Assembly: GCA_008632985.1 (NCBI GenBank)
Contig: QPGO01000017.1
Coordinates: forward strand, 434,001-498,000
Direction of reading: 5' to 3'
Length of the DNA: 64,000 nt
Origin: Psammoneis japonica
Taxonomy: Eukaryota
The translations under genes were made by a program, and so were the position numbers. Below the pieces are notes generated by a model. That model was not told where the DNA came from, searched no databases, and saw nothing but the letters and a program-made list of their open reading frames with translations. Each line of letters starts with the position of its first letter. Position 1 is the first letter of the stretch. Of this stretch, positions 413-60,950 are shown in pieces.

Positions 413-3400
413 TCAAATGCCGAATGCACCAGAAGGAACCCTTTCGTTCTTGCTAATCGTTGCTGCCTTTGCCTTCGAAATGCCATCGCAGAACTGGTCT
501 TCCGTGATTTGGCCAGTGGAGCATTCACGGGTCATTTGGTTTTTGAGAATCATTGAGCGGAGCGGCACGCAGAGACCCTTGAGCACCACAAAGTCAGACT
601 CTGGGGTGACATCTTCCATCAAGATTTGAAAACCCTGCTCTGTGGCAGCGCGACAAATCTGAAACAGGCACTTCAAGTCGTCACTGTCACCCACCTTGAA
701 TCCGTCCAAAGCCAAGCTTTTGAAGTGAGCGTGCTGCATCCCTTGCATGCATGAGAAATTTTAGATTGGGGCATGAACCAATGAAATGAACCGAAATGCG
801 ATGTCCACTGCCCGTGTCCTCCTTGCTGGGATCGCCAGTGCCATTCCGGATAAATGCAGGGTCGTTGGTGAAGCACTCACCTTCATCCGAGCATGCGCAC
901 TCTTCAAAAATGAGGGTGCACCTCGAGCCCATCAACGGGCTGAAAATTGCATCTTCAATTATGAGCGTCTTCGCGAAGATAAGGTCAGGAAAATCGTGGG
1001 ACTCAGCGCATCGTTTCCCACAGGTGCGCATTGCCTCTGGCGTGACAGCAGGAAGAGGCTTGTTCTTCTTCGTTGTGACAGTTAGCTCGGATGCTCCGGA
1101 GACGTGTGCGAGGCCCACCAATGCAGTGGACAGCATGTCTTTCATAGCATCAGTTCCTTCAATGCTGACGACTTGGAGAATGTGGCTTTGCCTGTTCCAA
1201 ATGTGATGTGGATGTCTTGCGACTGGGTCAATCCCAGGCCGGGGCCCCACACAGTTCCATGTCTTCTCCGGTGACGTAATCATCGGAACCGATTGACTCG
1301 TCATCACATGACTCTGTGTCACTGGAATCATTCTTTCTGTTGAATGGATTGTCGATGAAGAAGGCTGCCGGCTTGTAATCGCTTGCGAGGATGATCTTGG
1401 TGCTGATTCCGACGAGATCTTGACCGTCCGTTGGTGCGTTCAAGCTAGCTTCGATGAGGGAGGGAACTTGTTCGGCAATGTTGCACACAACGATTGCTCC
1501 GGGGCATTCAGAATCCATGTCGTGAGCATACTTCCAATCGTCGTCGCTGACACCGTTGATGCGCATCTGATGGAGTTCCTTGAGAAGGAGGGCATCCGAC
1601 ATCGGATATCTAGAAATGGGAGAAAAACAAAGAGCTTCAGTGAGTAAGATGCATGAGGCAACACAGAATCTTTAAAATGCTAAAAAACTTACTGTTCGAT
1701 ACGTCTCGAGCCTGCTCCTCCAGAGGCAGAAGGGGTTGTAGCCGCCGGCTTGTTATCGTAACTGCTTCCATTGTCTCTGTCGTGGACGGCATCCGACGTC
1801 GGATATCTGGATATGGTAGCAACACAAAGAGCTTCAGCGAGTAAGACGCATGATGCAACACAAAATCTTTAAAATAATAGACAACTTACTGTTCGATACA
1901 TCTCGAATCTGCTCCTCCAGAGGCAGAAGGAGTTGTAGCCGCCGGCTTGTTGCTTCCATTGTCTCTGTCGTAGAGGGCATCCGATGTCGGATATCTAGAA
2001 ATAGTAGAAAAACAAAGAGCTTCAGTGAGTAAGACGCATGAGGCAACGAAGAATCTGTAAAATGCTAGACAACTTACCATTCGATACGTGTCGAATCTGC
2101 TCCTCCAAGGCATAAGGAGTTGTAGCCGCCGGCTTGTTGCTTCCATTGTCTCCGTCGTGGACGGCATCCGACGTCGGATATCTAGAAATGGTAGAAAAAC
2201 AAAGAGCTTCAGTGAGTAAGACGCATGATGGAACACAGAAATTTTACAGTACTAAAAAGCTTACTGTTCCATACGTCTCAAACCTGCTCCTCCAGATGCA
2301 GAAGGGGTTGTAGCCGCCGGCTTGTTATCGTGACTGCTTCCATTGTCTCCGTCGTGGACGGCATCAGACGTCGGATATCTAGAAATGATAGCGAAACAAA
2401 GAGCTTCAGTGAGTAAGACGCATGAGGCAACACAGAATCGTTAAAATAATAGACAACTTACTGTTCGATACGTCTCGAATCTGCTCCTCCAGAGGCAGAA
2501 GGAGTTGTAGCTGCCGGCTTGTTGCTTCCATTGTCTCCGTCGCAGAGGGCATCCGACGTCGGATATCTAGAAATAGTACAAAAACAAAGAGCTTCAGTCA
2601 GTAAGACGCATGAGGTAATGCAGAATCTGGAAAATACAAGACAACTTACTCCTCCGTAAGATTGTCGCCATCGTAGTGGGCATCTGGCGTCGGATGTCTA
2701 GAAATAGCAAAAAACAAAGGAAATTCGCTGAAAGAAAACAGAATTTGTAGCATGTATATTATGTCAAGAAGACTCACTGTTCAATGCCGCTGTTTTGCAT
2801 CTCCCCCGCTCGATCGTAAGTGCGCTCGTCGCCAAAGTCGGGGAATAAGGTGCGGCTACCGGTAGGGGGCGATTCCGCATCATCTCTATATAAATAATCC
2901 AACAGAAAGACAAAGACATTATCAGTGCAACACTCTCGAGGTAAAAAGGAATTAGTGAAGAGCGAGAAGAATGTGCAGAATGCAAGACCACTTACGGTTC
3001 GGTTATACCGCTTTGTTGCAAGAGGTGAGTAACGATTTTACGACTCATGCTGCCTGCTTCCGTAAGGCTCCCCGCCACGGTCCTACTCACGGTCTCCCTC
3101 ACAGTCTCCTCATACTGGTTCTGCCTGGCAATCGCTCTGTCATACAGCGCCAATCGAAACTGCTGGTTTCTACTGAGCGATTGTGGGTAACCGCCCGCCG
3201 GAGTTTGCACTCCGACAGTCGACGGGAGAGGCGTTGCTTCGCGGCGGTTGAGAGATTGCGGCGTTCTGTTTTCCAACGGAGGTCTCGCGTGCGGAGTCGT
3301 CGTCGTGTGCGCCGATCTCGGATGACTCGTCGAAGCACGGCGAGGCGTTTGGTGTTGTTGGTTCATTGCTGCGGCTTCGGCTTCCTTTTTGGCTAGTCGG

Positions 3401-12918: not shown

Positions 12919-15589
12919 TAGATGCGTATCAATTCTCAGAGGCCCTCGTTACTCTTCGTGGTTATCAAGCTGCAGCGTTGTCCTCTCGTCTAACGTCTAA
13001 CGTCGGAAGTACTAATGCGTCCAGCGTCGATTAGTTTTGAGGTGTGAGGTGTGAGCGGCATCAAAATGATTTTTCGCGCGATAAGGCTCTCTACTGGACG
13101 CGAGAAGACGACCTCCTCCGCCAAAGCAAGAAACGCGATGGATTGTGACATTTCGTCTTACAGACCTCCCAGTTGGGAGTGTTCGTCTCCCAAGAAATCA
13201 GCTGATCGAGACGAGGTCAATTCCCCTCCCCCTGGAAACGCAAACAAACAAGGAACGACCCCCCTGCCACATGTTCTTTGAGTCCACGTCTGAGGCAGCT
13301 GCTCGCAAGTCGACAGAGTCAAGTCAAGTGACAAAACAAGGCAGCTCTGGTGTCCGGGAGCAACAACGACTTTGGCACCCCAGAGAACCTGCCTGTCAAA
13401 GCAAAGGACAACCAGGCAACTCTGTCTGATTAAGGAGGACCAGCTGTGCAACCTGCCTTCTTTCCTTTCAAAGATTCTTCTCCATTGTGACATGTTCTTG
13501 AGCCTGGCACCTGGTGACAAAAAGGAGGGTGCGCACACAGGCCCATGCCGCCCCCCATGCTGGCAGAGAACAAGTGCACACATGAGCAAAAAACTCGCTG
13601 TCAACAAGCTCACCAAGGATGCCCTGGTCGATGAAAATCTCCAGGACAATGAACAGACACAATGAAGAAGAAGAAGAAACAAGCCAGTGTGTTGGCGCGT
13701 CCACTCAAGTTAAGAACAGGGCACCAGCAGCCAAAGGCAAGGAAGCTCGAAAGGAAAAAAGAGAAAGGGTGGCTCCTTCTCAAGTTGTCCTTCTCATCTT
13801 CCTCTGCATTCAACGGATCAGCACAGCGCAGTTCTTCCAGCATCTCCATGGGCACACTGCTGTTCTTGGGTGGCAAACTCCAGCACCAGCACCTCAAACA
13901 AAGCAGCACCAAGTTGGCATCCTCATCAGAACAAGAAGGCAGCTGAAAAAAATCTTGTTGGTGGGGATGCCACATGACACCCACAAAATTGTGGGAGCAG
14001 CCAAGTCTCTTGTCATGTGCAACCCCCCCCCCCCCCCCCTTTGTTCACAACTTGCTTGAGTGAGTTTTTGTCCCGCCCTTTCTCTGTGGCAAGAACAATC
14101 CCTCCTCTGCTCTCTTGCAAAAATGTGCCTGACAATGCCACACCTGCGAAAACAATGAAGCAGAAAAAAGGGAGGGTGTCTTGGCCAAACAACCAGGTGG
14201 TGAGTCAGATGGCAAATCAGACAACAATGAGTTGGGAGACAACAGAGAGAGGTGGTGTGAGCTGCACAACAGCAACACACTTGCAACAATGTGGCAGCTG
14301 CACCACAACCAAAGAGCAGCTGCAGCCACATTTCCCCAGGAGGATTGTGACAACAACAACAACTTGACAAAAAGCCTGTGTTCTTGTTGAGGGCCCACTC
14401 ATTGCAAACAAATTGATTTGACAATTAGCCAATCAGCAAAGGAGGAGCCAGACTTGAGGAAATTTGGTCTCAAAGCAGGCAGGTTCTCAACAAGACAAAT
14501 TGTGAATGTTGGCAGTGGTCAACCAAGTCAATGAAACAAGAAACCACAACAACAAACAAAACATTGCTCATTTCTGTGCAATGTTTGCTCTTTCCATGCT
14601 GGCAATGTTTGACATTTGGTGCATGCTCTTGTGCTCTCATTCTGTGCTGTTGCTTTGTTGCTTGCCTTTGTTCCCTTTGTTCTTCAAGCTGCTGTCCCAT
14701 CTTGCAGCCTGTCTTGCATCTCTCAGCATTCTTGGCTGTGCTGGCATTGCATCACACTCCAAACTTTTTGTGTTTCAAATGCAGTCAGTTTTTGCAACAG
14801 CTGGTCATGGTGAGACGTGAAAGCAAAATCTCTGAGAGGAGACAGCAGAGAAGATGTCAGCTTGGCATGTTTTCTTTGGCAAGTGTGGCACAATGCTGCT
14901 GTTTCTACTTGCCGGTGTGCAATGTTGCAGCAGTTTGTTTCTCATCCTTGGCCATTTTTGTCAACTTGTCTGAGCTTCAAGAAACAAAAAATGCAAAAGA
15001 AGGAAAGCATTGTTTTGTTTTTGTTTGCCAAAAGCTGCCTGCTCCCTTGTCACACTTTTGACCACCTGCCTTTCCTGAAGCATTTGTTTGTTGGTTTGTG
15101 CAGAGTTCTGCATGTTGTTGGTGCCTTCCTGCGATGTTGTCATTGTTTGCATGCTGCATTCATGCATCCTGCATTTTTGTGATTTTTTGTGTGGTGGCGA
15201 TGTGCCTTTTTGCCCCAGCCAACAAGCCAGTCAGCCTGGTGATCATTGCCTGTGTGTCATTTTGTAAGTTGTCATTGCAAAAGCTTTTTGTTGCACTCAT
15301 TTGTGAAGTTTCAAATCAGTTGAATTGACTTGAATGAGTCATTTCTTCATTGGCTTTCATTGCCAATGCACTTTGCTTGTGTGTGCACCCCCTCTCCACT
15401 CATTTGGCATCTGGGCATTGAACAGCACCAGTGCTTCAAACAGATGCATCACATCTGTTTTCAAAGAAGATTTGTGTCTCAGTTTTTGTGACCTCAACTG
15501 GCTCTTGTCAAGAATGAAATTTTCACATTTGTGCAGGCCCACTCAGCTTGTTTGCTTGTCTCCGTGTGGGGTGTGCCATTGCAGCAGCT

Positions 15590-17470
15590 GATCTTTGTGG
15601 CTGATCCAGACATGCGCAATGGCACCAACCACCATTCCAACCATTGCAATCTGAGGACACTGCAGCATCTGGCAAACCACAGGCAATGCTTTGAGGGCTG
15701 TTGATTTGGGAGCTGCAAGGTCAGTCTTCTGACGTTGCAGCCATGTTGCTGTGTCTCCAACAGCAGCAGACTTGAACTTCCAAACCCCACAGTGAAAGGA
15801 CCACATGATGGCACCAACCAACCTGGCAAAACTGCAAGCTGAGGGCACTGGAGGTGTCTGGTCAACCCCAGGCAACACTTCAAGAACTGTGGCTGAGCAT
15901 TGGAATGTTGACCTTGTGGTGTTGTGGCCTCACATGTCACCTTGGCCCGCCACTTTGGAAAATTGAACTTCCAAACTCCAGAGTGTGCAAGGAGATCCCA
16001 TGGTGGCACCAACCAGCCTGACAACTGCAAGCTGAGGGCGTTGGAAGTCTCTGGGAGGCCCCAGATGACACTCTGTCAACTGTTGCTGGATGTTGCAAGG
16101 TTGATGTTGCAGTGTCATGGCCCCATGTTGCCTTGTCCCCAATGGCAGCAGACTTGAGCTTCCAAACTCCAGAGTGAACAAGGGGCCCCATGATGGCACC
16201 AACTGACCTCTTGATGGCTGCAAGCTGAGGGCACTGGCAGCATCTGGCAGACCCCAGATGTTTTTCTAAGAACTGTGGTTGGGCATTGCAAGGTCAATCT
16301 TGTGGCAATGTGGCCCCATGTTGCCTTGTCTCCAAGCAACTGCAGCAGCAGGGGGGCAGACTTGCAACTTTTCCAGCTCTAGAGTGCTGCAAGGATCCAA
16401 CCATGTCAATGCCAGCTGACCTGACAGCTGCAGGCTGAGGACACTGACCATGTCCAGTGGAACCCAGGCAACACTCCTGGAACAGTTGTTGAGTGTTGCA
16501 AGGTTGTTGATCCATCTTGTGGTGTTGTGGCCCCATTTCATGTCCCCAACACCAGCAGGGGAGACTTGAGCTTCCAAACTTCAGAGCAAAGCAACTCCAT
16601 GATGGCACCAAAACCAACCTGATGGCAGCAAGCTGAGGACACTGGTGGTGTCTCTGGTGGACCCCAGGCAACACTTTGAGAACTGTGGTTGAGAGTTGCA
16701 AGGTTGACATTGTGATGTTGTGGCCCCATGTCACCTTGTCCCCAACAGCAGCTGACTTGACTTTCCCAGCTGCAAGAGAGTGCAGGGATCCCACAACAGC
16801 ACCAACCAACCCAGCCATTGCCAGCAAAGCACAATGGCTTGTGGCCTCTGGTGCTGGACTCAGGGCAAGATTTCAAGAATGGTTGTTGGGCACTGTGCAA
16901 GGTTGATCCTGCGGTGTTGTGGCTCCACAATGTCACTTGTGCCCAACAGCAGCAGACTTGAACTTCCAAAATCCAGAGTGAAAGGACCCCATGACACCAC
17001 CAGCCAACCTGACAACAGCAAGCTGAGGGCCCTGGCAGTGTCTGGCACACCCCAGGGTGCACTTTGAGAGCTGTGGCTGAGTGTTGCAAGGCTTGTCTTG
17101 TGATGTTGTCACCCCGTGTCACCTTTTGTTCCCCACAGCAGTGGACTTGAGGACTTTCCCAACTCCAAAGTGCAAGGATCTCACAATGGCGCCAACCAAC
17201 TTGACCACAGCCATTGGCAGAGTGCATTTTCAGTCTTTGACAGACCCCAGGTGAACTGTGGTTGGGCACTGCAAGGTTGATCTTGAAGTGTTGTGGCCCC
17301 ATGACATCACATTGTGCCCAACAGCTGTGGACTTGAACCTCCAGTCAAACTCCAGAGTGAATGACTGTGGCCCCATGTCACCTTTTTTTTCAACAGCAGC
17401 AGACCCAATTTTCTAAACTCCAGAGTTGGTTTGGTTGTTGCCAAATGGTGGTGGGTGAAGAGCAAAACTT
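15590..17470. repeat. Diverged tandem repeat, about 195 bp unit, about 10 copies
   Basis: GCAGCAGACTTGARCTTCCAAACTCCAGAGTG, CTGCAAGCTGAGGGCACTGG and GCAAGGTTGATCTTG recur with a period of about 190-200 bp. Confidence 0.9.
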
Positions 17471-18569
17471 CAAGGGGCCATGTGCTGGGAATGCCAGAAG
17501 CACAGAGTTGCCAAACAGCGACAAAATGGCTTGAGGAGGAAAATGGATGATTTTGCAGCAGCATTTTTGAAACAAGTTTCTCTTTGTTGGGGAACCAATG
17601 AAGAGCTGCAACAAACACTCAAGCTGTCCTCTGTTTCATTCAGATCAAAAGTTCAGGCAAGAATGGATCTTGTGGGAGGATCAGCTGGGGTGCAAGAAGT
17701 CAGAAATGTGAGGTCAAGCTTGTTTGTTGATTGCATGCCACACAACTTTTGGAGGCTTGCAGCCTTGTCAAGCTTTCTTTCCAGGCGAGTTGTCAAGAGT
17801 GAGTTTTTGTGGCCAATCTTGTTGACAACACAGTTTTTGCAATGTTGCACCAATCATCTGCTTTGACCTGTTGCACAAAGCTTCAACATGTCAAACAAAG
17901 GCTTCTTTCACCAAAGCCTTGGCTGCAAATGTTGCTCATGCAGTCTGGGTCCTGGAGCTGTGTGCACAGAGAATGCCTGCCCTTCTCTCTGACACGCAAA
18001 TTGGCACTTGGACAAGCATGGCACCCAAACAACCCTCTGCAATCTTTTGCAACAAGAGACAAAACTGGTGCACTTGCAAACCAACAAGGAAGAGCCACAC
18101 AGGCAGTGGGCATGATTTGGTGTTTGCTGGCAGAGAAACCCACTGACACAGCTGAAACAGCCAGAGTGCAATGTGCAAGCATGGAAATAAAATCACAGCC
18201 ATGTCAATCCAGACAACTTGGCACCCAAAAAAGCATTTGCAGCACATTTGTTTTCAATTGACCACTTCAAAGTGGTTTTGAATGAAGCACAGAATTTGAT
18301 TGATGCACTCTGAGATCTCTCTGGGTTGATGTTTGGTTTTGCAAAAACTTGTGATGTGATGACAAGGATGTCAAGTTGGTTGATGAGCACATTTGTGGCA
18401 ACAGAGGAAGCATGAATGATGACAAGGGTGGGGTGACATCATGGCCATTGTGGGGGTGGCTTGACATTGTGAGCTGGGCTCTGCTGGAGTGCAAATTGAC
18501 ACTGGACAGAAGAAAAGGATTCAAGTTTGCAGCTGCACTGTTCATTTGTTAAAAGGGGGCTGGCTCAAT

Positions 18570-19580
18570 GAGAAGTTTGACACTTGAGCCTCCAAACTCC
18601 AGAGTGAAAGGACCCCATGGTGGCATCATGTGGCACCAACCAACCTGACAACTGCAACAAGCTGAGGGCACTGGTGGCATTGGTGGGCCCTCAGCATGTG
18701 ACTTCAAGATCTGCAGCTGAGCATTGCAAAGTTGATCTTGTGTGGTGCAGTGGCCCCATGTCATGTTGTCCCCAACAGCAGCAGACTTGAGCTTCCCAGC
18801 TCCAGATTGCAAGGAACCCATGGTGGGGCCAGCCAACCCAACAAATGCCAGCAGAGGACACTGGTGGTCTTGTCTTTGGTGGACCCCAGGCAACACTTTA
18901 AGAACCATGGTTGGACATTGCAAGGTTGATCTTGTGGCATTGTGGCTCCATGGTGTCACTTTTTCCCCAGCAGCAGCAGACTTGAGTTTCCCAACTCCAA
19001 AATGAAGGGACCACACTGCAGCACCAACCAACCCAAAGACTGGCAGCACCAGTGGTGGACTCAGGCAACACTGCTGTGAGAGCCATGGTTGGGCATTGCA
19101 AGGTTGATCTTGAAGTGTTGTGGCCCAACATCATGTTGTGTCCGCACTGCAGCCTGAGGCCCCCAGCATGACAGTGCCAGCCAACCTGACAACAGCAAGC
19201 TGAGGAGACAGCTGGTGGCATCTGGTGTGCCCCAGGCAACACCCAAAGAACTGTTGTGTGGCCCCATGTCACCTTGTTGCCACAGCAGGCAGTGACTTGC
19301 CATTTCCAACTCCAGAGCACACAAGAATCTCCCATGGTGGCACCAACCAACCTGACAACCACTGGCAGAAGTTGGCAGTCTTTGGTGGACCCCAGGCAAG
19401 ACTTTGAGAGCTGTTGTTGAGCACTGCAGGTTGATCTTCAAGCATTGTGGCCCTGTGTCACATTGTGCCCAACAGCAGCAGGAGCGGACTTGAGCTTCCA
19501 AACTCCTGAGTGAAATGATCCCATGGCAATGCCAACCAACCTTGCAACAGCAAACATGGCGCCATCAACTGCCCCAATTT
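18570..19580. repeat. Second array of the same ~195 bp repeat, about 5 copies, same orientation
   Basis: Same motifs at about 18585, 18780, 18970, 19290 and 19485. Confidence 0.85.
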
Positions 19581-22424
19581 TCAAAGTTGCTTTGTTGCAG
19601 TCACAAGTGCCACGCACTCCTGTCAATGCTGTGGGCTGGTGGCAAATGCATGTTTCATGTGTCCCCAGCTGTGACCCACATGCATCCTGTGCAGCTCATG
19701 ATGTCATGTGTGATGATGCAGCGGCAGTCCATGTGTTTTTGTGCAAGGCAGCATCTGAAATTAACTTGATCATTGCACATCTTGAAGTCACAGTTGCAGC
19801 ATTGCCAGCTCTGTGAACAGCATCTGTGGTGAATCCAGAGTGGGTGGGTGGAAAGACCAGCTTGTTGAGGTGCAAGCATGAGACAGGAGTGCATCTGAGG
19901 AGCCTGGGCACCTGTGACGCCTTCATCATAAGTTGTCACCTTGGGTTGGCTGTGCCAAGAGCCACAAGTTGACTCACCCAGGTGCTCAACAATGCATTTC
20001 CCTGGTGGCTGTGCCACTAAAATCTGTGTCTTCTTGGCTTTGTTGTGGGTGTTTGCTTGATTCAACTGTGTGTGTCAGAATCACAAACTGGTCGTTGCTG
20101 TTGCTGCAGGGGCATTTGGGGCCCCAACTGCACCTGCAAGAACTGTGTTGGCTGCAACTGTGATTGCAACTTTGTTCATCTCTTTTCAAACATTTCATTG
20201 TGTGCGATGATTCCTGGTGCACATTTTCATGCTTGTTGTTGCACTTGCACTCATGATGATTTTTGCACGATCATTGTGGTCATTGTGTCATGGGTGGCAT
20301 TGCTGCGCTGTTTTTGAGCCTCTTTGATGACACACTTTGACATTTTACAGTCAACCACATTGCAGGTGTGTCCAATGTGTGGCTCCTTTTCATTGTGCCA
20401 CTCACACAAACATTTTTGGCAGTGTTTGCCTGGAGAGTCTTCTCAGTTGGTTCTTGCCAAGCAATGTTGCATCTGAGCTGGTCCTGAAGCAGCTCTGGCT
20501 GCCTGGGCCTTTCACTCAGGCTGTTAAGAAAAACAGTGTCCTCATGACATCTTGGTCTCCAGCTTGCAACTGGCTGCACTGCTTGTTTTTGACCACACAA
20601 GGCAAAGCATGTCCACACTGCTTGTCCTTGATGAGCTTGGGATGGTTGTTGAGAGCTTGACCTGAGAGCATCTTGGATCATTTTCAAGAAAATGACTTTT
20701 TGCTTGGCAAGTCAACCCTGGCTCTGGGCGGTCCTTGTCATGTGGGGGTTGCTCTTGTTTTCTGCAGGAATCTCTTTGTTTGCATTGTCAAAGTGCCAGA
20801 TGGCATCACCACACATTGAACTGTGCACCGCCACATTGAAATCTGCCAACCCTGTCTCACAGGTCTTGTTTCCAGTGTGACATGTGATTTGTCTCTTCCT
20901 GGAAACAGCGCCACTCTTTGGGTTTGTTGTTTTCTGTTCTGGCAAAGCACTTGACTTCAGCATGTTCTGTGATGCCTGGATGTTCATGTTCAGGGTCATC
21001 TGGGAGTGCATGAGTGACAAAGTCTGCTTTTCTCAATTGTTTTGTCTTTTTCTTTGAGAGAGTTGAAGTTGGAGAACAACATGAAACACAACTTGGCAGT
21101 GCACTTCCAAGCAACAATTTGCTGATGACCACTGCTGTCAGCATGAATGAGATCAAAATGCCAGAAGTGATGTCACTGTGTGCTGCACAGGCACTGTTTC
21201 TGATTCCATCAGATGTTGCCATTGCTTTGCAAAAGGCAAAATTGCAAGGAGCACTGTCACACACTCATTTGTTGTGATGCTTGGAGTTTGGCTGAGTCAA
21301 AAGATTTTGAGCAAGACTTCAAAGATGTCTTGGATCTTCATCAGCCATTTCTTGCATGGCACGGGCAAGCACAATTGCATTGTCTGTCAAAAGGCGGTTG
21401 GCTCAGTGAGAAATTCATTTTGAAAGAAGAGTCTTTTTGTTGCTGTCAGTCATGTGATGAGAGGAAACACACAGTGGATTGTGACAGGGACAGGGGTGCA
21501 CCATTTTGTCATGCAAACAATGGGCCAGTGGCTGAGTTGTGTGGTGCCCCATGCAACAAAGAGACAACAAGTGCAGCAGAAACACACAAATGCGCACAAT
21601 GGGCAATGATCAAACCAAAGCTCTTCCAAGCAAATGAATCAACTTTGAACAAGATGCCATGCCACAAACAAAACATTGCAAATCAATCACCATCAGCAAA
21701 CCAGCTGTCAACCTCAAATGACAAATCCGGCAATTCCAGATTTTGGTTTGTGGCCAAAAACAAGCCAGCGTCAGAACATTGTTCAGAATCACAGCTGCGG
21801 TGACCACCTTGGTTGATTTTTGAAAAAATGAGACACCTGTCATGGCAAATGCAAACACAGGCAAAATTTTTTTGACTCTTCTGAACAAATCACTTCTTGC
21901 TGCAAACAACAATTTGCAATCTTGCTGTCAACTCTCTGTGCACCCAAATGTTTGATGTGAAACACAAAATGACTGAGCAGTGTGTGCCAGTGAGAGCTGT
22001 TGGACAACAAAAAGACTGGTGGCCAGAAGCTGGCAGTGCTGTTTGCTGGTGTTTTGTTTGTCAGCAAAGAAGCCTGCCCAGAGAGCATCAGTGTCAGGAG
22101 GCACTTGTTGGACCCACCCATGAAAATCAAGTGCTGCAGCAGCATGCTGTTGAGTTGGAGGTCATGCTGCGCACAATTCATTGACAGAGCATCACCAGAA
22201 AAGGAGCTGCAGTTTGCAAAGGGGCTCAACTGACAAAGAAACTGTGCTCAACAATGTGGAACAAGAGCCAGAAAGAGCTCATTTTGACTGCCACTGCCAG
22301 GTTGATTGGGGGTTGGGGGCACAATGGCAAGCATGACTCATGTGTCAAGACGAGTGGGCTGTGTTGCTGTTGTTGTTGACCAAGGACTCTTCCTTGCTTC
22401 CCTTTTCTTGTCTTGAACAAAAAA

Positions 22425-23160
22425 CACCGGCAATGAGAGAAGCAAAACATCATGAACCCACCCACCATTGGACAACCCATTGAATGACATGTGAGACACA
22501 GCAAGAGAAAAAGATCATGTCTGCCTGCTGTCAACAAGGTGTGTGCACTGTGCCTTGAAGAACCAGGCAGAAAGTGATGCAACAAACAAAACACTGAAAG
22601 CAAAAATCATGAGACCATTTTGGGTTTTGGTTGGATGTGGGCAATTGCAAATGACACTCTCTGCAGCACAAGGCAAAATGACTGAGAGATGAGAGCTGTG
22701 CCAAGTGGGCACTCTTCAAAAGGCTCAAAGTCCATTTGATGCTCACATGTTGGTGTGCCACGACAGACACTTGGGTTCAAAAATGGCTGTGGCACCGGCA
22801 ATGAGAGAAGCAAAACATCATGAACCCACCCACCATTGGACAACCCATTGAATGACATGTGAGACACAGCAAGAGAAAAAGATCATGTCTGCCTGCTGTC
22901 AACAAGGTGTGTGCACTGTGCCTTGAAGAACCAGGCAGAAAGTGATGCAACAAACAAAACACTGAAAGCAAAAATCATGAGACCATTTTGGGTTTTGGTT
23001 GGATGTGGGCAATTGCAAATGACACTCTCTGCAGCACAAGGCAAAATGACTGAGAGATGAGAGCTGTGCCAAGTGGGCACTCTTCAAAAGGCTCAAAGTC
23101 CATTTGATGCTCACATGTTGGTGTGCCACGACAGACACTTGGGTTCAAAAATGGCTGTGG
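22425..23160. repeat. Apparently exact 368-bp direct tandem duplication
   Basis: 22425-22792 is repeated at 22793-23160. Identical ORF translations occur at offset 368. Confidence 0.95.
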
Positions 23161-25050
23161 CTGCTCTGCAAGGAAGCAAAGAGTTGTTGTTGGCCATCTG
23201 CATGGGAGTTGACCAGAGACAAAATCAAGCTCACAGAATCTGCAAAGAGAAGTGGCAGTGCAACAAGAAAAAATTCCTTGCCAACTCTCTGCCAGCAGCA
23301 CTGTGTGTGGTGACTGCAGCAAATTCTGCCAAAACAAGTGTGCCAGCTCACTCTGATGCTGTCATCTTCACATGGATCACAGGAAGGTTGCAGGAAAAGA
23401 AGAGAAAAGTGCGGCAACATTGCCATCCTCATGTGGTGCTGCCACCATGGCAAGCTCCAATGTGTTGCACACTGCATGTGCTGAGGCTCCATGAGGAGCA
23501 TCATCTTGTGGGTGGCAGAGAAACATGGGTGCCACCTCCACATGCTGACTGAAGGCAAGCCTCAAAAACTTGGCAACAGCACAAGCAAGGACAAGACCTC
23601 TTTCTTGTCAATTCTTGAGAGAGCTCTTTTGGGACAGATGAAGGGTGCTTTCATGCCAAGGGGGCAAGACCAAGGGAGGAGATCCTGGAGGCTGCCAAAA
23701 GCAAAGAGAAGCCACTCTGCTGGCTGAGTGCAGCACAGGAAAGGTGAGAAATGCATGGGCCAACCAAGGTTGGGCTGGCCCTGGGTTGAAGAGATGATGC
23801 AAGAACTTGGCTGTGCCATGACCGGAGCATAAAAAATGAGAGATAAAAATGGGCAAAAGATTTCTGCAAAGTTGCCACACAGAAGCACCTTTTGCAGTGG
23901 GTGAGCTGAAAAAGAGAAAAGAAGGCAAAGGAGACCAGATTGGTGGGAGAGCATGGTGGTGGCAAAGAAGCAACCAGCTGAGCAGAGGAGGTTCAGACAA
24001 GCAGTTGTTTGTGTCATTTGTGAGGCAACGGCCAGGAGTTGAGCAGCTGCTGTGTCATGAAATGTTTTTTGCTGTGACCTGTGACTCATCAACACATTTG
24101 CTCCAAGCAGAGCCTGCAGCACAGCTGAAAAGACAACAAAAAAAATGTGGAGTGCACATTTGGGGTTTGCCACAAAAAGCTTTTGGGTTGATGCCAATTG
24201 GCCAAATTGGGCGGGTGACAGAATCCTGACTTTTTTAAATCAGAAAATCCATTGGATGATTTGGAAAACCCATTTTTTTTCATTGATTTTCCAAAGTGTG
24301 TGACAACAGTGGTTTTGTGGTGCCAATTTTCCCCCTCCTCAGGGCTCAGCCTTGTGCAATCTTAGAGTGGGAGCACCTCACTGGCACAGCCCCGAGCCAA
24401 AAGGAGTGCACACACGGTGGCTCAGCATGCTCAAGAAGTGGGCCAAGCTCCAACCCAAGATCAAAAAGTTTGAAATCTCAGATTGTGACATTGGGCCAAG
24501 ACCATTGATGCTGATCATCTTTGCCATGAGAGCGAGGCAGAAGAAGCGGGAGAGAAAGTCTCTCTCTCTCACAATGAGCGGATTTTGTTCCCCAGCTCTG
24601 CTCTTTCCTCAGCACTGGCAGCAGCATGGAGAGCCAACACAGTTTCCCTTTTTAACTTCTCACAACAACAAAGGGTCCTTCTGAGCCCGAACATTCTCCA
24701 AAAAGGCTGGGAGAAAGCCAGTCCAGCACCAGTGTTGCAAGTTGCACAACCTGGAGTGCGTGCCCAGGCAGCGCTTGGCTCAAGCGAACTTGGGTTCGCT
24801 GTCTGGAACACATTTCTCTCTGGAGTTCTGCACCCCATCTAAATGAAATTCTGCTAAGGGCACCAGCACTAAGCGGCAATTTTTTTGTTGATTGGTCGTG
24901 TTTCAACTGCTTGTGCCAGTGCAGCTGACGGCAGACCGGCTGACGAAGCAAAAGAATGTGACAAATGACTAAAAACGTGATTAAATACCAAAAAATCGAC
25001 CTCTCCAGTACAGAATGGACGTGGAAATCGTCTACAAATCACACAGAGTT

Positions 25051-47597: not shown

Positions 47598-47759
47598 TTC
47601 TTGTTGTGGTCATCTCACTGACGCGAGAGGTGGCGTCAATTTTTGGATGTCGCGAACGGAATTTGGAAAGTACACTTTCGGTCATATTGGCGAGCTTGCG
47701 TCCGTTCCGCCACCAAATCAGCCAATGAAAAGCATTCAAAAGTGGCAGAACAAGACCCA

Positions 47760-50700
47760 AAATTTCTGTTCATTCGCCAGCAGCCTTGAAAGATCGAGAT
47801 GAAAACTGAAAAGAAAGCAGTCCAGTTGTGATCAAAGCAAGGAGGAAAGAAGGGCAGAAGAGGCAGTCACGCTGGACAATGCCCATGTGCCACAGGGCAT
47901 GCCATTTTGTTTGCAACAGGATTTGAACAAGAAGAGTGAGACATTCTTGTCCTGTCCCCATCACTCGAGCATGCTTGCTGATGTCTGTGGGGCACAGCAG
48001 CAAGCAAAGCTGCGGCTGGCTGCCGGCTGGCTGCCCAGACCCAGCACAACACCTTGCCATCATCTGCATGTGCAGCAGATGAGTCTCTTTGCAGAGACCA
48101 TGTTGCGGGTGTGCTGCTGCCCCTGTGGGAGAAGAAGCGGGCATGTGCTCTGGTGCCAGAGGTGAGGAGCGGCTTTTGGTCTCACCAGCTTTGCAGGCAG
48201 GGCTGGTCTCGTGCCTGTTCTTGCAGCTGCTCATGCCCATGTGAAAGACAAACAACAGTCAAAACACTTGGTTGGTGTGACTTGAACCCAAGGAAGCCTG
48301 TTTTGGGGTGCATGCACACCAGAGTGGCGTCACAGACGCTGCTGCCACCAGATTTTCCATTTCTCCCAGCACCGCAAAGTGGAGTGATCTTCACATTGTT
48401 CCAAGGCAGTCATCTTTTGGAACAAGAGCAGTCTCACACCACTCAGTTGGATCCAAGCCATGCCAGTCATTGGAAGCTGTTTGAGCACAGCAGCCTCATG
48501 ATCTTGCCCTTGCAAACACAATGTGGCCGCTGGCTTTGTGTTGGTGGGAAATGCCCAGAGGTGTCCACCACAGCATTCTCCTCGTGCTTTCAGATCATCA
48601 GATTCAGCGATCATGTCGCGAACTCCACCACAGTCATGCACATGGAACTTGGCACATGCATTGCCATCTCGAGCAAAGAGTCTGGACAGCAATTCGGAAG
48701 CAGGCCCATTCATGAGCGAGATCAGTGGCTGGATTTGCATCTTCCGCCCAGTCCGCATGACTTTTGGTTCCTGCTTTTACTTTGTGCAGTGGCCAACATG
48801 GTCATTCAATGACCACTCGTGTTCAGAAAGTTTGATGAGCATTTGTGAGCCCTGCGCACCAATCAGTGCACAGCATGGCATGATGTTGGTGCCATCGCAT
48901 TTTGTGAACAAAACCTGCCAGCCTGCTTTTGTGATGATCCGCTTTGATGGATGTCTTCATGGCCACAGAAGCTACATGAAACATGGCATGTCAAGGCAAT
49001 CCCGTCCGAGCAAGCCTTCGAAATGGCAATCACGCTGATCCTCTCACAATTCCAAACTTGACCACCTGATCAAGCATCGACTTGCATCTTGCTGCTGTCA
49101 ATCATCATGCAGGCCTCTCTTCTTCTCTTCACCATGGTGCTCTTTACCATCGTTGACGGTGCTGTTCCATTCCCCATCAAACATGCGCTCTTTTCCTTTG
49201 CCGTCTTCATCGCGTTGAAGCAAGCCGTTCAATTTTCGAGCGTCGACGAGACGTGCGTTGCGACTGTCCGAGTCCTTGAGACCAAACCATCCAAGATGTT
49301 TCCAATCCAGTTTCCCATCGAGTGGTCGAACAACAAAAAGAGAAAGCGATCGAGCACTGCCAGCCATTCTGACGACGTTGAAGACTCTTCTTGTGAAACG
49401 AAAGTGCCCAAAACCGCCATGACCACTTGCAAACGCACCATCCATAAAGTCCACAAGAGCAAACGTTCGAAGGACAAGGAACGTGACTCTCCGTTTGATC
49501 GCCGAAAGATGCAAGCGTTGGCACGTAAAAATCTCATCAATGCCCGTCGCTTTGGCACAAACAAAAAGCCCGCCACTCAGAAGAAGCTCCGTCAGCATCA
49601 ACCGGCCGAAGATGTTCCAATTCTGCTCCGCATGCATCAGGAAGTGCAAGCCGTCAAGCACAAGGAAAAGGTCCAGGCTCGTCGTCGCCAGGAACAGTCC
49701 GCATCGTTGTTGGGAAGCAATCAAGGGAAGAATTCTACTGCACAACATGAGGAGGTGTCTCTGATGCTTTGATTCACTGTGGTGAGGGAACCAACTGGAG
49801 CTGTCCAGTGGGTCGTGACCAACTCACCGAATCATGGAATTTGCTCTCGGTTGCAAGCAAAAATCCAGACAAATGTCCAGCAATTTAGAACAGAAAAAAA
49901 ACACACAGAGCAATCCCACTCAACATCAAATCTGCTTTCGTCATTTAGACTAGAGAGCTGACTTTGTAGCATGTGTGCGTGGCGTGTTAGTTTCAAGTCG
50001 TGTTTGACACGATCCATCTTCTGTCACCTCAATCTTCTTTCTTGCCTTTTCATTGGCATGGCAGTCACTGACATTGGTCAACAAGTGCTTTCAAGAGTCT
50101 TTCGCATGGTCTGTCAGTTGACTTTTAGCTTGAAATGCCATCCAATGGTTGTGGAGCAACACTTTACAAATGCAAATGAGACAAATCTTTGTCATTGTTG
50201 GAACTTCACCTCGGATCCAATTGTCACCTCTCATCTCGGATGCAATTCGGCCATCACCTCTTGGAGTGCACAACCCTGTTTCCTGGCAAGGCGACATTGC
50301 GAAAACAGCAGTGCATGGCTTCTTCTCAGAGCAGAGTGCGTGTGCCGTGCTGTCCATGCACTCATTTCGGGTGACACTTGTGCAAAAGTTTGACAATTTG
50401 ATTTGCTTGCTGGTGGGCTGCACTCAATTTCTTGGCTTGCCTCTGATCGATTGTGTGGCTCCTGAAGCAACTTGACAAAGTCAGGTCCATGAGGAATTGT
50501 CAACCAGCGGTTCAAACCCAGATGAGAGGCAAAACAGCACATCTTGATTTGATCCACATTGACCATGTCCGCAACTCCTGGTGTCTGGCAGATCTCTCGC
50601 ATGTGGCAGAGAATTGCCGGAGTTGAGGCAACGCTGCGTGTGTTGGTTTTTAAGCAGACAATGCAAACTTCATCAAATCGAAGCAATGTCACAAACAAAT

Positions 50701-53700
50701 GAATGTCGCTCCGTCATTTTTCACTGCAATGAATTTTGTTTCTGAAGATGAGTCAATTTGATCAATGAACCGTCAACTGCTCATCGCTGTCGGGCCTGCT
50801 GCAAGTTGCAAAGCCGCAACGGCAAACGCGTCATTGGTGGTTGGATGGATCCAATCATTGACACTGTCGATTGTCATCTGCATTTCAGGTAGAGTCAGCG
50901 TCTGGATTCTTTGCAAAATCGTTGAATTCCAAGTTGAGCACGCATGATTTCCGAGGATTTGTTGCTGACAACAGCACTCAGCTTGGCATCCCGCAGGATG
51001 GGGACCGTGTGCTTGCCATCTGCATCCTTGGCTTCTTCGTGCAAATCTCTCACACTGAAGGAACCAAAAAGAGGGTCCGGGTCGTTGCCCGGGAGAGCCG
51101 TGGGGAAAGGCCCGCCCAAACCAACAGTGTTGTGAAATTCTTCTTCGTCAGGATTGCCAAACACCCTCTCATGGTGCCCGTCGCTTTCATCGTCGGGCCT
51201 TGTCTTGCGCCAAGCAGGGTGCACCACAGTGACAGAAATGCTGTCTTCCAGCCCCTTTAGAGCCCGCATTGGCAGAGCCGATGAGCCCATGGGCATGCGT
51301 TGGCAACATGCAAATGGCAGCGATTCTTTTCTGGAGGGAATTGAGCTCCTTTCTCTGTCATGCTTCAGTTGCAGCACAGAAGAAAACAGCAAGAAATGGC
51401 TTCTAGAGAGTCAAAGTAACCTCTGTGCAGCATCTTGAGGGATGTCGTCCAGAGTCCAAGTGTGGGTCGAAAACCAAAAGGGAAACACATGCAGTCGCAC
51501 TGTGGTTGCTTCATTTCTGAGATTCAGTTGGCTTGATTTCATCATGCGACACCTCCTCCCAGCCCATCTCTGGTGCTGAATGCAGGGAAGACAATGGAGC
51601 CTGCATGATTTTTGGCACATGGTGGCCATTCGTTGTCAATGGAAGCATCGCGTCCATGGCATCACAATGGACAACATAAAAAAAATGGTGACCAAGGACC
51701 AGCTAAATGCACTCGTCGAAACCAGGTTTTGCACACAAAAATGCTGAAGCTGGCTGCGTGTTTCTGCGTAGATGCAGCGCTGATCGATGACGTCACAGCC
51801 TCCCTCCAACACTGCGTGCAGTCTGCGCGCTGCCTCGAACTTCAACAACCGCAACCGCACAAATCCATTGCCCATGGCCAGACCCTGCACGAGATTCTTG
51901 AGATCCTCATGTTTGAACAACTGCACAGCAAAGACCATCACTTGCTTGAGCAGGCAACAGCTGCAAATGCATGTGACAGTGAGTTTTGTGGCTGTCACTT
52001 GTTTCGAATTACTTCTGTGCAGTTGCCAGCTCATCACGAGCAGGTTGCAACGTTTTGGTGTGACACCACATAGAATCCTGGCACGTTTCTACGCACAAGC
52101 GCATTTTTGCACATTTGGCGCAAAATGAGCCCCAAAAACTCAAAAATGTGCACTGCGCATTTAGCCGGTCCCCAATGGTGACTGAGACTACTTGAGACCG
52201 ACTGAGGACCAGGTTCAAGGTGATGTGAGGCACGGACAGACTTCTTTTCTCAACCTCCCTCGCTCGCTTGCTCTCGCCTCACAAATCGCAAAGTGGCGCA
52301 CGTGGCGTGCTCAAGGCATTTCCCTTTCCCCCCTGACCAGCAACAAGAGCATCCCCCACTCCCACCCCCTGACCAGCAATGAGGTCGCAACAACAAACAA
52401 ATAAAAACACCAAGCTGTCCTGTTGTTTGTCGAATCAAGCACCGTTGATCTTGAGTTGTTTGTTCATCAGAGGGACAAAAGAGGTGGCATGAATCACAGG
52501 TCATCATCCCCCACACTGAGCCATTGTGTGCACGTCTTCATTTGTTGGGTGGACCCCTCACTGATCAATCAACATGGCCACTTGTTGGGATCTCACCTTT
52601 TTCATTTGTTTGCATGTGTCCACATTTGCCCTTCATCTGAGTGTTGCCCACCAACATTGTGGTGTTGTTTTTTGCATTCCAACACTTTGGTTCAACAATT
52701 GACGTGCCCGACCAACACATGTTCATGGATGTCCCAGCATTTTCATTGCATGTTCTCTTTTTTTGTTTGCACTCAGCAACATTTCTAATTTTCCGATCGC
52801 AAGTTGTGCGCTCGATGTGTTCATTTTGTTCGATGGGGCATGGTGCATTTCAGCGGCAGCATGAATGGCGGTGCAATCATGAGCACATGCTGTGTGTGGT
52901 GTTTGCACTGCCAATTTGTTGCTGTGGCCATTCACTGTCTCCTCATTCATCACAAAGGTTGTGTCTGCCAAGGTGCACTCTTCTTCTTGATTTCTGTCAC
53001 TCTCTGTTTTACCTGGCACTGCAAGCATCACTCATGTCACTTTCTCCTCAACTGAGAGTGGCTTCTGCTGGTTTCACTGTTCCCCCCTCCAGCCAGAGTC
53101 AACTCTGGCAGTCACCACTCAAGCTCTTAAGGTCAATGAAACTGTCAGCCCAACAAGATTTGAACAAGAGCCAGACACTCTTGTCCTCTTTCTGCAACCC
53201 AAGCTTGCTGACATCTGTGGGACATGGCAAGCAGAGGCCCGAGTTCCAGCCCAGACCTGGTGCAACACCTTGCCACTGCTGTCCACATGGCAGACAAGTT
53301 TCCATGCAAAGACCATCGCAGGTGCCCCCATGGGAAAAGGGGGCCCATGTTCCAGGGTCAGAAGCAGCTTTCAGTCTGGCCACTGGCTGGCTGCAGGCGG
53401 CCAGTCTTTTGCCTGTCACAGCTCATGCCCATGTAAAAAACACATGAACAGCCAAGACACTTGGCCTGTGTGACTTGAACCCAAGCCCACCACTTTGGGA
53501 CACGCGCCAGAATGTGACATTTCAATGCTGCTGACAGATTTTCCATTTCCCGGCCAAGGAACAGAGTCGTCCATTGGCACCACTTGTGCTGCTGAAATTC
53601 ATCACTGCAGACTGTTCACTGTTTCCTTGTTCATCATTTTAAGGTCAACTGCCAAAATTCATTCTTCTTCAACTTCTGTCAGTTTGGCTGCTGTGTGCTG

Positions 53701-54300
53701 CAAAAAAGCACTGCCCCTCTGCCACCCGCCTGCTGCCTCTCTCTTTGGATGCTCCCAGGGCAGGGATCAGCATCAGTCACCATGCAGTGGGTGCAGCACT
53801 TGTCAAAGCATGGTGGCTTTGTTGTGCTCCCAATTTGATGCCAATTTGATGCATTGGTGGCAGTGCACACTCCTGCCAAACACAAAAGAAAGAATTTTGA
53901 CACTCAAGGGATGAGTGCGGAAGAAAGCCAAGCAAACCCAGGTGGTCAAGAACAGTGCTTGTCACCATGCAGCAGAGTGGGGAACATGCCTTACCTCTTC
54001 TCGATTGTGACACAAAAGCTTTTTCGTGAGAGAGCACTTTGCTTTTGCAGCTTCCATTCATGTCATCTGCAGAGCAAAAAGAATCCATCCACCTCAACTG
54101 CTTTTTTGTCTGTACGAAGGGGTGCGTGGTTCTCGAGTTCCGGTGTGTATGCATGGCATGGTGCGGCAACCGGAAACGCACAAAGTGCACGCGCGGAACA
54201 ACAACGACGACGACGGAACGCGATGAGGCAGCGCAGACAGCAGACAGCAGACAGCCACAGCGCAGAACTAACGCAGATCTGAGAGGTGTGGTTGTGCATT
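47760..54300. other. Second TpA-depleted block with decayed gene copies; CpG retained in patches
   Basis: TA is very rare and ORFs are nearly Tyr-free and Cys/His-rich. Contains two diverged copies of one segment (about 47910-48365 and 53150-53550). Confidence 0.85.
50430..51460 (-). pseudogene. Glutathionyl-hydroquinone reductase (YqjG/ECM4-type GST) pseudogene
   Basis: Frameshifted fragments in the correct order: FPPEKNRCHLHVANACPWAHR, RALKGLEDSISVTVVHP, GKHTVPILRD...VVSNKSSEIMR, DWIHPTTN..VCRCGFAT, LFVTLLRFDEVCIVC...REICQTPGVAD. Confidence 0.9.
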
Positions 54301-59289: not shown

Positions 59290-60950
59290 TGTTTGTGTCT
59301 GCTGTGGCGGTTTGCATCGATCTGATGGTGCAATGGCTGTCGCGCCGTGTCCATTGGGAACTTTTCCAACACAGGTTCTTACACATCTTGGTCCACTGAC
59401 CAGATCCACACAACATGGTTTGTTCACATGTCCCACATCCTCCGTTTGAGAACGAGTGGGAGACATTCCCAGAGGAGCCACAATGGCCATGCCAGTTCCA
59501 ACAAACTTGATTGATGTGCATCCATTGGGTCAACTCAAAGCACTCTGTCAGTGAGATTTTCTCCATCTCGTCTTCAAAAAGCTCCCAAATCATCACAGTT
59601 TTGTCTGTGTTGATGGCTGCAATGGCATCTCCACAACAAACATTGGCTTTTCCCAAATGGGGCTCTTTGGCTGCTGAACCACCACAAGATCTATCTTAAG
59701 AAATTTGGCACAAAAATCTTGCAGTTTTGACTTCCTTCCAAGTTGGTCTCATTGATTTGGGGAGTTCCATGGTTGTTTGCATTGGGCTGCCACAGTGTCA
59801 ATGTGATTTTTCACACATGCAAAACAAGAAGCCACCACAATGGACAATCTGAACAATGTGACGAATTGGCTGGCTCGTTTGTCCTTTTTCTATTTTGTGT
59901 GCCACCAGGCTTCCAAAACAGCATCAGCTCACATGTTCCTGATGCAAGCCCAGAACATTTGTTTGGGTGTGGGAGAAGGTGCACTCCAAAGAGCAGCAAA
60001 ATCTCAAGGAGCGGTTTGAGGTGGTGGGTCTGGAGAAGAAGAGGGGAGGAAATCAAAAAGCTTTGATGGCTCTGAAAGATCAGACGAAGATGTGGGTTGG
60101 GAGCAACAACATGAATTGCAAGGAGCCAACATTCCAGTCAAGGCACACAAGCCAATTTTGAGACCAAGATGGAGCAGCTTGAGATTTGTGAAAAGAAAGC
60201 CAAAACAAAAGCTTGCTCAAAGGATGGGAGGCTGGCACATCAGAAGTGAGGAGCTTGATCTGGCTGATGAGGCCAAACAGAAGACTGTGTGAAGTGCCTT
60301 TGCAGAGCACATTGATGAGTTTTTAATGTGCTTGTGTGGAGGAGACCATGGGAAATGGAGAAGAAGATGAACAAACACAAGATCAAGGAGCTCAGCAAGA
60401 CTGTGCTCCCCAGCTGCTTCAAGCCCCATGTCAACAACAAGGTGAAGGGCACCACATGTGTGTCTTGCAAACGATGATTGACTTGACATTGAGCCATGGT
60501 TGACAACCTTGAGGAAGATGTCAGCCTGGTGCCAACCAAGCACCAGCCTTGCCTGTGCATGCTGTGCAGCGCTGCACAGCTTGCCACTTCCTGAAGTGCT
60601 GCTTTTGGCACCCTCTGTGCTCCAGGAAAGCAACAGGAGGCACAACATGCTGGGACACAGAAAATTGACCACAAAGGCAAGTTGGCCACTTCTTCGTTTC
60701 ACGTGTGGAAAGCACAGCAAATGTTTTTCTGATTCAGACAGTGCGCTTCAATCTGTCTGCAGCTGATCGGACACGTGCACAAGAAGCAACAAAATGGCAA
60801 AACCTCTTGTCACCTGCATTGTTTGCACGCAAACTGTGATCTGTTTCTTGCTTTGTTCAGCTTACTGCAAATCATTTGTGGCCGATCTACGAGTTGCCAG
60901 CATGCTCAGCAAGAACAGCTTTATTAGCAACAGCAGTTGCTCTGCTGGCA
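59290..60950. other. Third TpA/CpG-depleted block
   Basis: Same composition as 13.3-24.95 kb, flanked by normal DNA. Confidence 0.8.

Follow-up and report, generated by a model that had tools for sequence, protein, structure and literature searches.

Tyrosine codons of a dead glutathionyl-hydroquinone reductase gene copy as a record of local TpA loss in a diatom genome

Why should a dead gene copy have lost every one of its conserved tyrosines and kept most of its other conserved residues? The question is raised by a pseudogene of the glutathionyl-hydroquinone reductase (GHR) family at 51370..50423 (minus strand, 948 bp) of a 64,000-nucleotide stretch of the diatom Psammoneis japonica (assembly GCA_008632985.1, contig QPGO01000017.1, positions 434,001 to 498,000), the whole of which is called the window here. 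The answer lies in the dinucleotide TpA. In the block that holds the pseudogene, and in at least two other blocks of the window, TpA has been converted fast and CpG more slowly into TpG and CpA; the change took place at the level of DNA, is restricted to the blocks, is symmetric between the strands and went on independently in each copy after duplication. The reading that we prefer, at a probability of about 0.8, makes the feature a dead duplicate of a diatom GHR gene, lying in a repeat-rich block with local, strand-symmetric, DNA-level transition hypermutation.

A reductase gene copy and the fate of its tyrosine codons

Judged by its sequence, the gene copy is a pseudogene of the Xi-class glutathione transferase (GST) or GHR family, of the YqjG/ECM4 type, as an earlier note made from the letters of the window had recognised. 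A protein search found five intact relatives of 313-363 amino acids (aa) with GST_N_2 and GST_C_2 domains, the best of them 64% identical. In tblastn the window matched homologue P0001 with an E value of 2.7e-62 (63.6% identity over 51293-50940) and homologue P0004 with 2.2e-61; P0004 in turn matches solved GHRs and Xi GSTs (4uss, E 1e-106; YqjG 3r3e, 2e-76; also 6gc9, 3ppu and the yeast omega-like GST 5lkb), and it is these matches, with the strong tblastn scores, that make the family assignment hold. The Pfam GST_N_2 model reached only E 0.011, below threshold, on the largest open reading frame (ORF) piece of the pseudogene. A frameshift-aware alignment against five homologues, from which the extent given above is taken, is co-linear over approximately 320 residues, about 43-362 of P0004, so that the copy is nearly full length; no intron is seen in the aligned sequence. 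The Cys-Pro-Trp-Ala motif, which has a catalytic role in GHRs, is retained as ACPWAHR at 51301-51278. In common with the family (YqjG, ECM4, poplar GHR1), the pseudogene keeps CPWAHR, VPILxD, SSEI, RCGFA, DxRLFxTLxRFDEV and IK..(Y/F).SH, but unlike its working members it has six frame changes and a replacement at every conserved tyrosine.

An uninterrupted reading frame has not been kept, the ORF pieces being no longer than 171 aa, and the alignment places the frame changes near 51271, 50939, 50893, 50823, 50767 and 50712. Contigs that represent other copies of this sequence in a public sequencing run have one extra base after 51277, 50887, 50828, 50786 and 50782. These extra bases coincide with five of the six breaks, which are therefore real deletions in the window copy; the one-base deletion at 50828/50829 lies just upstream of the tyrosine codon of NGVYRCGFA. 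Beside 50708 a loose contig end was aligned by eye with three one-base gaps, and read by hand it stays in the GHR frame, whereas the window copy does not.

The altered motifs on which the earlier note had built its case are all present. RCHLHVANACPWAHR is the minus-strand translation of 51322-51278, with TGC at 51319-51317 and CAT at 51310-51308; RDLHEE, together with GKHTVP, is found in the minus-strand ORF 50895-51410, WIHPT in ORF 50773-51147 (-), and RFDEVC and REICQ in ORF 50231-50713 (-), while VCRCGFATC is the translation of 50827-50801 (-). A column was called conserved where at least four of five relatives agree, which gave 152 columns, nine of them tyrosine and 143 other. None of the nine conserved tyrosines was kept, against 117 of the 143 other conserved residues (26 changed, 18%; Fisher p = 7.5e-7). 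As aligned, four tyrosines have become His (CAC or CAT) and four Cys (TGC or TGT), and the ninth is scored as TTT at 50826. The last is an artefact of the aligner, which opened the frameshift two codons past its true place; read in the frame of 50827-50801, the codon is TGC. With the frameshift at 50828 corrected and the column at 51319 added, the tally is six Cys and four His (Table 1). The CAT at 51310 is weaker evidence, its column being Tyr in P0001 and 4uss and Phe or Ile in three other homologues. Every conserved tyrosine has become Cys (TGY) or His (CAY) because tyrosine codons (TAY) necessarily contain TA.

Tyrosine is not the only residue to tell this story. Conserved columns have changed at 35 places, and at 15 of them a single step from TG or CA back to TA restores the consensus residue; among these are Thr to Ala, Ile to Val, Asn to Asp and Met to Val, with the TA lying across the codon border. 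The remaining changes include four explained by a CG-type step, two by another transition, seven by a transversion and seven that need several steps. Only three TA dinucleotides are left in the 948 bp, where 39.6 would be expected from the window background (Poisson P = 7e-14). The value of the pseudogene is that its conserved tyrosine codons serve as an external ancestral reference, and so fix the direction of change.

Blocks without TpA and their other copies

Across the window the background ratio of observed to expected counts (o/e) is 0.61 for TA, 1.05 for CG and about 1.1 for TG and CA. The four blocks, B0 to B3, depart from it as set out in Table 1, with borders that are sharp within approximately 200-500 bp. 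Between 91 and 97% of TA is gone in B1, B2 and B3, about half of CG is gone in B2, and in none of the blocks has CG been depleted as far as TA. If TA and CG were turned into TG and CA, the four dinucleotides should keep their summed frequency, and they do: 0.2415 in B1, 0.2454 in B2, 0.2314 in B3, 0.2381 in B0 and 0.2376 in the pseudogene, compared with 0.2383 in the background. The G+C content of the blocks, 0.47-0.50, is likewise that of the background. DNA without evident constraint is normal outside the blocks, with TA at 0.74 and CG at 1.07 in 12.6 kb outside long ORFs, and TA at 0.72-0.88 in three introns. The loss also alters how the blocks read. On both strands TGA occurs at approximately 47-49 per kb and TAA or TAG at approximately 1-4 per kb; because TAA and TAG are nearly gone and TGA stops survive, the blocks contain many spurious long ORFs rich in Cys, His and Trp. 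Such ORFs can draw false zinc-finger-like matches, and the few zinc-finger-like Pfam hits obtained were below cut-offs, as expected from Cys-rich translations of TG. Pfam detected no transposon domain in 129 block ORFs (36 of at least 130 aa and 93 of 70-129 aa) and, among the block ORFs, no recognisable host gene besides the GHR copy.

What kind of process leaves such a pattern? Its products fall equally on the two strands, with TG:CA counts of 1313:1244 in B1 and 601:671 in B2, and TG and CA follow one another along the blocks in random order (runs z = -0.18 and -0.23 for B1 and B2, respectively). A single-stranded intermediate is unlikely. The earlier note had described the change as A to G at TpA. 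The two outcomes that it named, TGY and CAY, are those found, but A to G cannot stand as the sole description: T to C at TpA gives the same outcomes, and the two are indistinguishable because TpA is self-complementary and the process strand-symmetric. The TA sites that survive in B1, B2 and B3 are unevenly distributed when both strands are read: 54 of 116 stand before A (26 expected) and 10 before T (30.5 expected), with a chi-square of 52.6 in which each site is counted twice. TAA/TTA is thus at about twice expectation, TAT/ATA at about one third and TAC/GTA likewise below it. The pattern may reflect a preference that takes in more than the dinucleotide itself, or the route by which new TA arise.

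Comparison of repeated copies gives a view of the same events that does not depend on proteins. Where each copy has independently resolved an ancestral TA or CG, copies are expected to disagree as TG versus CA. Between the two direct repeats that bracket most of B2, TG versus CA accounts for 19 of 60 adjacent double mismatches, the next class having five; among the internal repeats of B1 it accounts for 278 of 907, the next class having 53, although the B1 counts are not independent because the high-scoring pairs overlap. Contig joints 47950>53290 and 48056>53276, both weakly supported, bypass the DNA between the B2 direct repeats. Arrays of approximately 193 bp units, alike at 64-77%, occupy 15.6-17.4 kb and 18.5-19.5 kb of B1, a block in which no protein domain could be recognised. 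B1 also holds, at 22425-23161, a tandem duplication of 368-369 bp whose copies are identical (100%); it is either very recent or an artefact of assembly. Once TA and CG have gone from a sequence, a new duplicate of it would give the process no substrate.

Sequencing run X1 has contigs (records 1, 5, 6, 7 and 8) identical to the window, at an even depth of approximately 62, parts of the blocks included. When contigs at least 80% alike are summed over 47968-53775, the depth rises to 113-800 against this baseline of approximately 62, so that B2, including the GHR sequence, must be present in several diverged copies. The earlier note had held that ordinary gene copies were affected as well as transposons. 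The first part is borne out in that a GHR gene has been hit, though not a single-copy one, the summed depth over the pseudogene being 273-305; for transposons, the 129 block ORFs offered no domain that would speak to the second. Depth is highest, approximately 650-800, at 48936-49903 and 51840-52323. In the first of these segments TA is gone and CG near-normal (o/e 1.12 and 0.77), suggesting that it was inserted more recently; an exhaustive HMMER search with the 236 aa ORF of this segment, at 49062-49769 (+), gave no match among 1.84 billion representative proteins. A second run, X2, carries the label 'DNA?' yet has the character of a transcript assembly: its contigs skip three GT..AG introns and cover genes alone. 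A lack of X2 cover over parts of B2 is no evidence of silence. Two X2 contigs lie on the pseudogene, one with 37 differences in 352 bases and the other with 40 differences and three gaps in 464 bases, and therefore an expressed relative, about 90% identical, exists. A paralogue this close was absent from the protein searches, which gave five matches (best 64%) and six matches (best 57%).

Other copies, about 88-91% identical to the window and some of them in the RNA-like run, show TA or CG at places where TG or CA stands in the window. Of 556 differing places and 110 indels, the comparison lists 40 and 12, respectively. Among the 40 places are 27 transitions; in our reading of them, the other copy has TA against TG or CA in the window at ten and CG at five, while one TG-versus-CA pair takes up two places, two (1 + 1) run in the reverse direction and eight are other transitions. 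That TpA loss is mutational rather than ancestral composition, the central claim of the earlier note, is consequently upheld from five sides: the fate of the tyrosines, the codon reversions, the mass balance, the TG-versus-CA mismatches, and TA and CG in other copies. These five tests are independent, and all agree. Cys or His in intact homologues, or TA sites mutated no more than others, would have told against the claim; the homologues, including a solved GHR, carry Tyr, and mutation has struck TA sites far more often than others.

Elsewhere in the genome there is a diverged, expressed-looking paralogue of B3 (window 59233-59774 and 59500-60900), represented by a contig of depth 57 in the DNA run X1 and by a 1954-base X2 contig (record 14). 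The minus-strand ORF 59231-59695 gives a weak WD40/beta-propeller lead (Atlas recognition 1582, under the mark of 2300). B3 is possibly a second dead gene copy.

The window itself is diatom DNA. Its MCM3 ORF shares 65-76% identity with its counterparts in Asterionellopsis, Attheya, Seminavis, Fragilaria, Fragilariopsis and Pseudo-nitzschia, and the other long ORFs are ordinary eukaryotic genes. One 608 aa ORF at 42879-44705 (-) fuses a UPF0014 membrane domain with an ABC ATPase domain, which are usually found in two separate proteins.

Table 1. Blocks, repeats, altered tyrosine codons and introns in the window (o/e, ratio of observed to expected dinucleotide counts)
Feature	Position	Strand	Evidence
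Block B2, holds the pseudogene	47690..54110	.	33 TA and 192 CG over 47900-54000 (6.1 kb); borders sharp; o/e TA 0.09, CG 0.51, CA 1.71, TG 1.63
Block B1, most extreme	13200..24650	.	19 TA and 56 CG over 13500-24400 (10.9 kb); o/e TA 0.03, CG 0.09, TG 1.91, CA 1.85
Block B3	59500..60900	.	o/e TA 0.06, CG 0.20, TG/CA 1.73-1.76
Block B0, cut by window edge, partly converted	1..1450	.	o/e TA 0.15, CG 0.77, TG/CA 1.43
TGC (Cys) at Tyr of RYH motif	51317..51319	-	Tyr in 3/3 aligned homologues
CAC (His) twice, at 51041 and 51011, Tyr of (D/E)LYE and GKYTVP	51009..51043	-	Tyr in 5/5 homologues
CAT (His) at 50847, Tyr of W(I/V)Y; TGC (Cys) at 50824-50822, Tyr of NGVYRCGFA	50822..50847	-	Conserved-column alignment and translation
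TGC 50665, TGC 50656, CAC 50605, TGC 50590, TGT 50536 (Tyr of RFDEVY, VYF, NY, EIY, HY)	50534..50665	-	Tyr in 4-5 of 5 homologues
Direct repeat, left member, brackets most of B2	47914..48292	+	Self-BLAST, 66% identity to right member
Direct repeat, right member	53151..53485	+	Self-BLAST, paired with 47914..48292
GT..AG intron, 88 bp	55568-55655		X2 contigs
GT..AG intron, 275 bp	58199-58473		X2 contigs
GT..AG intron, 92 bp	58565-58656		X2 contigs

Weighing the alternatives

Several observations weigh against the reading of a duplicated gene copy in a hypermutated block. At conserved columns, 16 of the 35 changes are neither TA- nor CG-type, so part of the decay is ordinary. The ancestral codons were reconstructed from proteins, the best relative being 64% identical, and not read from parental DNA; the listed differences from other copies, for their part, fall at 49138-49533 and 59272-59414, outside the pseudogene. 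Run X1, for which no sequencing platform is recorded, is not independent, and the window may itself derive from it. A tandem repeat of 197 bp x 5.6 at 1587-2650, beside B0, has been spared and has normal TA and CG; with polarity assigned by majority rule over 1587-2719, its copies show TA transitions at 3 of 120 site-copies and transitions at 20 of 606 for other sites, which is no TA excess and makes the array a negative control. Conversely, TA-free DNA runs approximately 230-340 bp into DNA of single-copy depth on both sides of B2. The ORFs of the window include no recognisable deaminase, methyltransferase or transposon domain. Finally, no hypermutated block was found in 1533 survey windows from 80 metagenomic loci around MCM3 homologues (414 kb), a weak test in which most loci were short and genic; blocks were sought as TA o/e below 0.2 with TG/CA above 1.5, and the low-TA survey windows all had 54-80% G+C and TG/CA of at most 1.36. 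From the spared array it follows that repetition alone is not sufficient for TA loss, and the affected single-copy flanks may be leakage, or a sign that something other than the repeat itself is targeted.

These last two features are also what recommends the alternative that survives best, in which the mutations are the same but their cause is passive: in heterochromatin or late-replicating DNA, TpA and CpG would be more mutable through poor repair of lesions, with no enzyme and no sensing of duplication. Unlikely as we judge it, this explanation keeps a substantial minority of the probability, and it would also accommodate the variation of CG loss between blocks, which resembles slow decay. 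It sits less easily with the loss of 91-97% of TA in places where half of CG, the classic fragile site, survives. Furthermore, 82% of the other conserved residues were kept while 100% of the tyrosine codons were hit, which puts the rate at TA far above the general rate, and we know of no spontaneous lesion specific to TpA. For these last two reasons an enzyme is favoured.

Could the missing TA be an error of reading instead? Heavily modified bases in silenced repeats, such as 5-methylcytosine at CG and modified A or T at TA, might have been systematically miscalled as transitions by a signal-based sequencer and so have entered the assembled consensus. The blocks do resemble silenced repeats, miscalls at methylated motifs are typically A to G and C to T, and the platform of X1, as said, is not on record. 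The k-mer contigs of X1, however, match the window letter for letter within the blocks at even depth, which needs accurate reads; that run also contains diverged copies of these repeats, 80-95% alike; and the gene copy has six real frame breaks that are missing from other copies. An artefact is very improbable.

Slightly more improbable again is a retrocopy of an edited transcript, in which hyper-editing of A to I by an ADAR-like enzyme would have been fixed by reverse transcription and integration. ADARs prefer a 5' U, which A to G at UA would fit, and the aligned pseudogene is intronless. Yet the outcomes are strand-symmetric, at six Cys to four His and TG:CA of about 1:1, and randomly interleaved (z about -0.2); conversion is near-complete and takes in non-genic DNA and the single-copy flank of about 300 bp; CG has been lost too; and similarity to another genomic copy (X1 record 4) reaches 51633, 263 bp upstream of the coding homology, with no poly(A) tract seen downstream. 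Ordinary neutral decay, that is, an old pseudogene under a genome-wide bias that removes TA and CG from all unconstrained DNA, is still harder to sustain. The background TA ratio is already below 1, and the copy has many other changes besides its six frameshifts, but the unconstrained background and introns described above are not depleted, the block borders are sharp, and conserved tyrosines were lost in nine of nine columns compared with 18% for other conserved residues. Least credible of all is a native composition, by which foreign or transposon DNA was always without TA and CG and a reductase-like sequence evolved inside it: the blocks are indeed repeated elsewhere in the genome and hold no recognisable host gene besides the GHR copy, but that copy is co-linear with host-type GHR over approximately 320 residues with precisely its TA-bearing codons altered, the mass balance equals the background, the TG-versus-CA disagreement between copies requires an ancestor with TA or CG, and other copies retain both.

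How does the preferred reading, a dead duplicated GHR copy in a block of local DNA hypermutation, compare with hypermutation systems already described? Known hypermutation of repeats, whether by repeat-induced point mutation (RIP), decay of 5-methylcytosine or APOBEC, changes C to T. RIP in Neurospora and other ascomycetes is alike in being a transition hypermutation of both strands in repeat blocks with sharp borders, in inactivating duplicated genes and mobile elements, in leaking into adjacent single-copy DNA and in leaving a diagnostic dinucleotide signature. It is unlike in its direction and its host: RIP turns CpA/TpG into TpA by C to T and leaves AT-rich DNA, whereas here TpA becomes TpG/CpA, A:T to G:C, with G+C unchanged, in a diatom and not a fungus. 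In place of the TpA excess of RIP we find TpA at 0.03-0.09 and TG/CA doubled. As to the duplication above a length threshold that RIP requires, B2 is multi-copy, but the 197 bp units, arrayed over 1.1 kb, are untouched and approximately 300 bp of single-copy flank is affected. In fungi RIP operates before meiosis, in the sexual phase, and needs a RID-type cytosine methyltransferase homologue.

Decay of methylated CpG could account for part of the signature. CG to TG/CA is confined to the same blocks, complete in B1 (0.09) and partial in B2 (0.51), and this range compared with 1.05 in the background, with a matching gain of TG/CA, is the CpG depletion that such decay would leave. It cannot be the whole, since cytosine deamination cannot remove TA, and TA loss is the more complete of the two throughout. 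A hypermutation of basidiomycete transposons targeted to TCG/CpG belongs to this class (PMC3318451). The deaminases APOBEC (C to U on cDNA) and ADAR (A to I on double-stranded RNA) similarly produce clustered, context-dependent transitions in mobile or duplicated sequences, but their editing is strand-biased and incomplete, unlike the near-total conversion seen here on both strands equally, in random order and with non-transcribed flanks included; editing of retroelements by deaminases is treated in PMC4866542 and PMC2873906. No report of TA to TG/CA hypermutation appeared in the full-text literature searched, which concerned RIP (PMC2621366, PMC7296669), CpG, APOBEC and ADAR and lay outside subscription journals and supplements. 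As far as these full-text searches show, near-complete, strand-symmetric conversion of A:T to G:C limited to TpA has not been described in any eukaryote.

A possible genome-defence mutator

In a block of this kind, nearly all TpA has become TpG or CpA in a ratio of about 1:1, the product being chosen independently site by site, and CpG is passing to the same two products more slowly. The two steps need not have the same cause. Repeats and transposons of diatoms are CpG-methylated, and the CG step was probably ordinary deamination of 5-methylcytosine in methylated repeats. For the TA step, either adenine would be deaminated at TpA, or thymine at TpA modified and read as C. Several hypothetical chemistries may be considered: deamination of adenine in a T-A context, of the sort that tRNA adenosine deaminases perform on RNA; oxidation or other modification of thymine at TpA; or methylation of adenine followed by deamination. 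Is the TA step the work of an enzyme that seeks out silenced or duplicated DNA, as a functional counterpart of RIP with the opposite chemistry? We would give this active reading even odds.

A more specific proposal is more tentative, and in our judgement falls somewhat short of an even chance. An undescribed genome-defence mutator, of diatoms or of this lineage, could edit TpA on both strands of silenced or duplicated DNA, as a mirror image of fungal RIP. Such a mutator, together with the decay of methylated CpG, would drive repeats towards a TA-free, CG-free state rich in TG and CA, and would strip its targets of TAA and TAG stops, tyrosine codons and TATA-like motifs.

Some consequences do not depend on how the change is made. 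Loss of TA conceals transposons and dead gene copies from homology searches, and silenced repeats in such genomes can be picked out simply by a TA ratio below 0.1 together with TG/CA above 1.6. If the process is enzymatic, it would represent a natural DNA editor of adenine (or thymine) with strict TpA specificity, of interest both for genome defence and for base editing, and diatoms, which are major primary producers, would possess a genome-defence system of their own.

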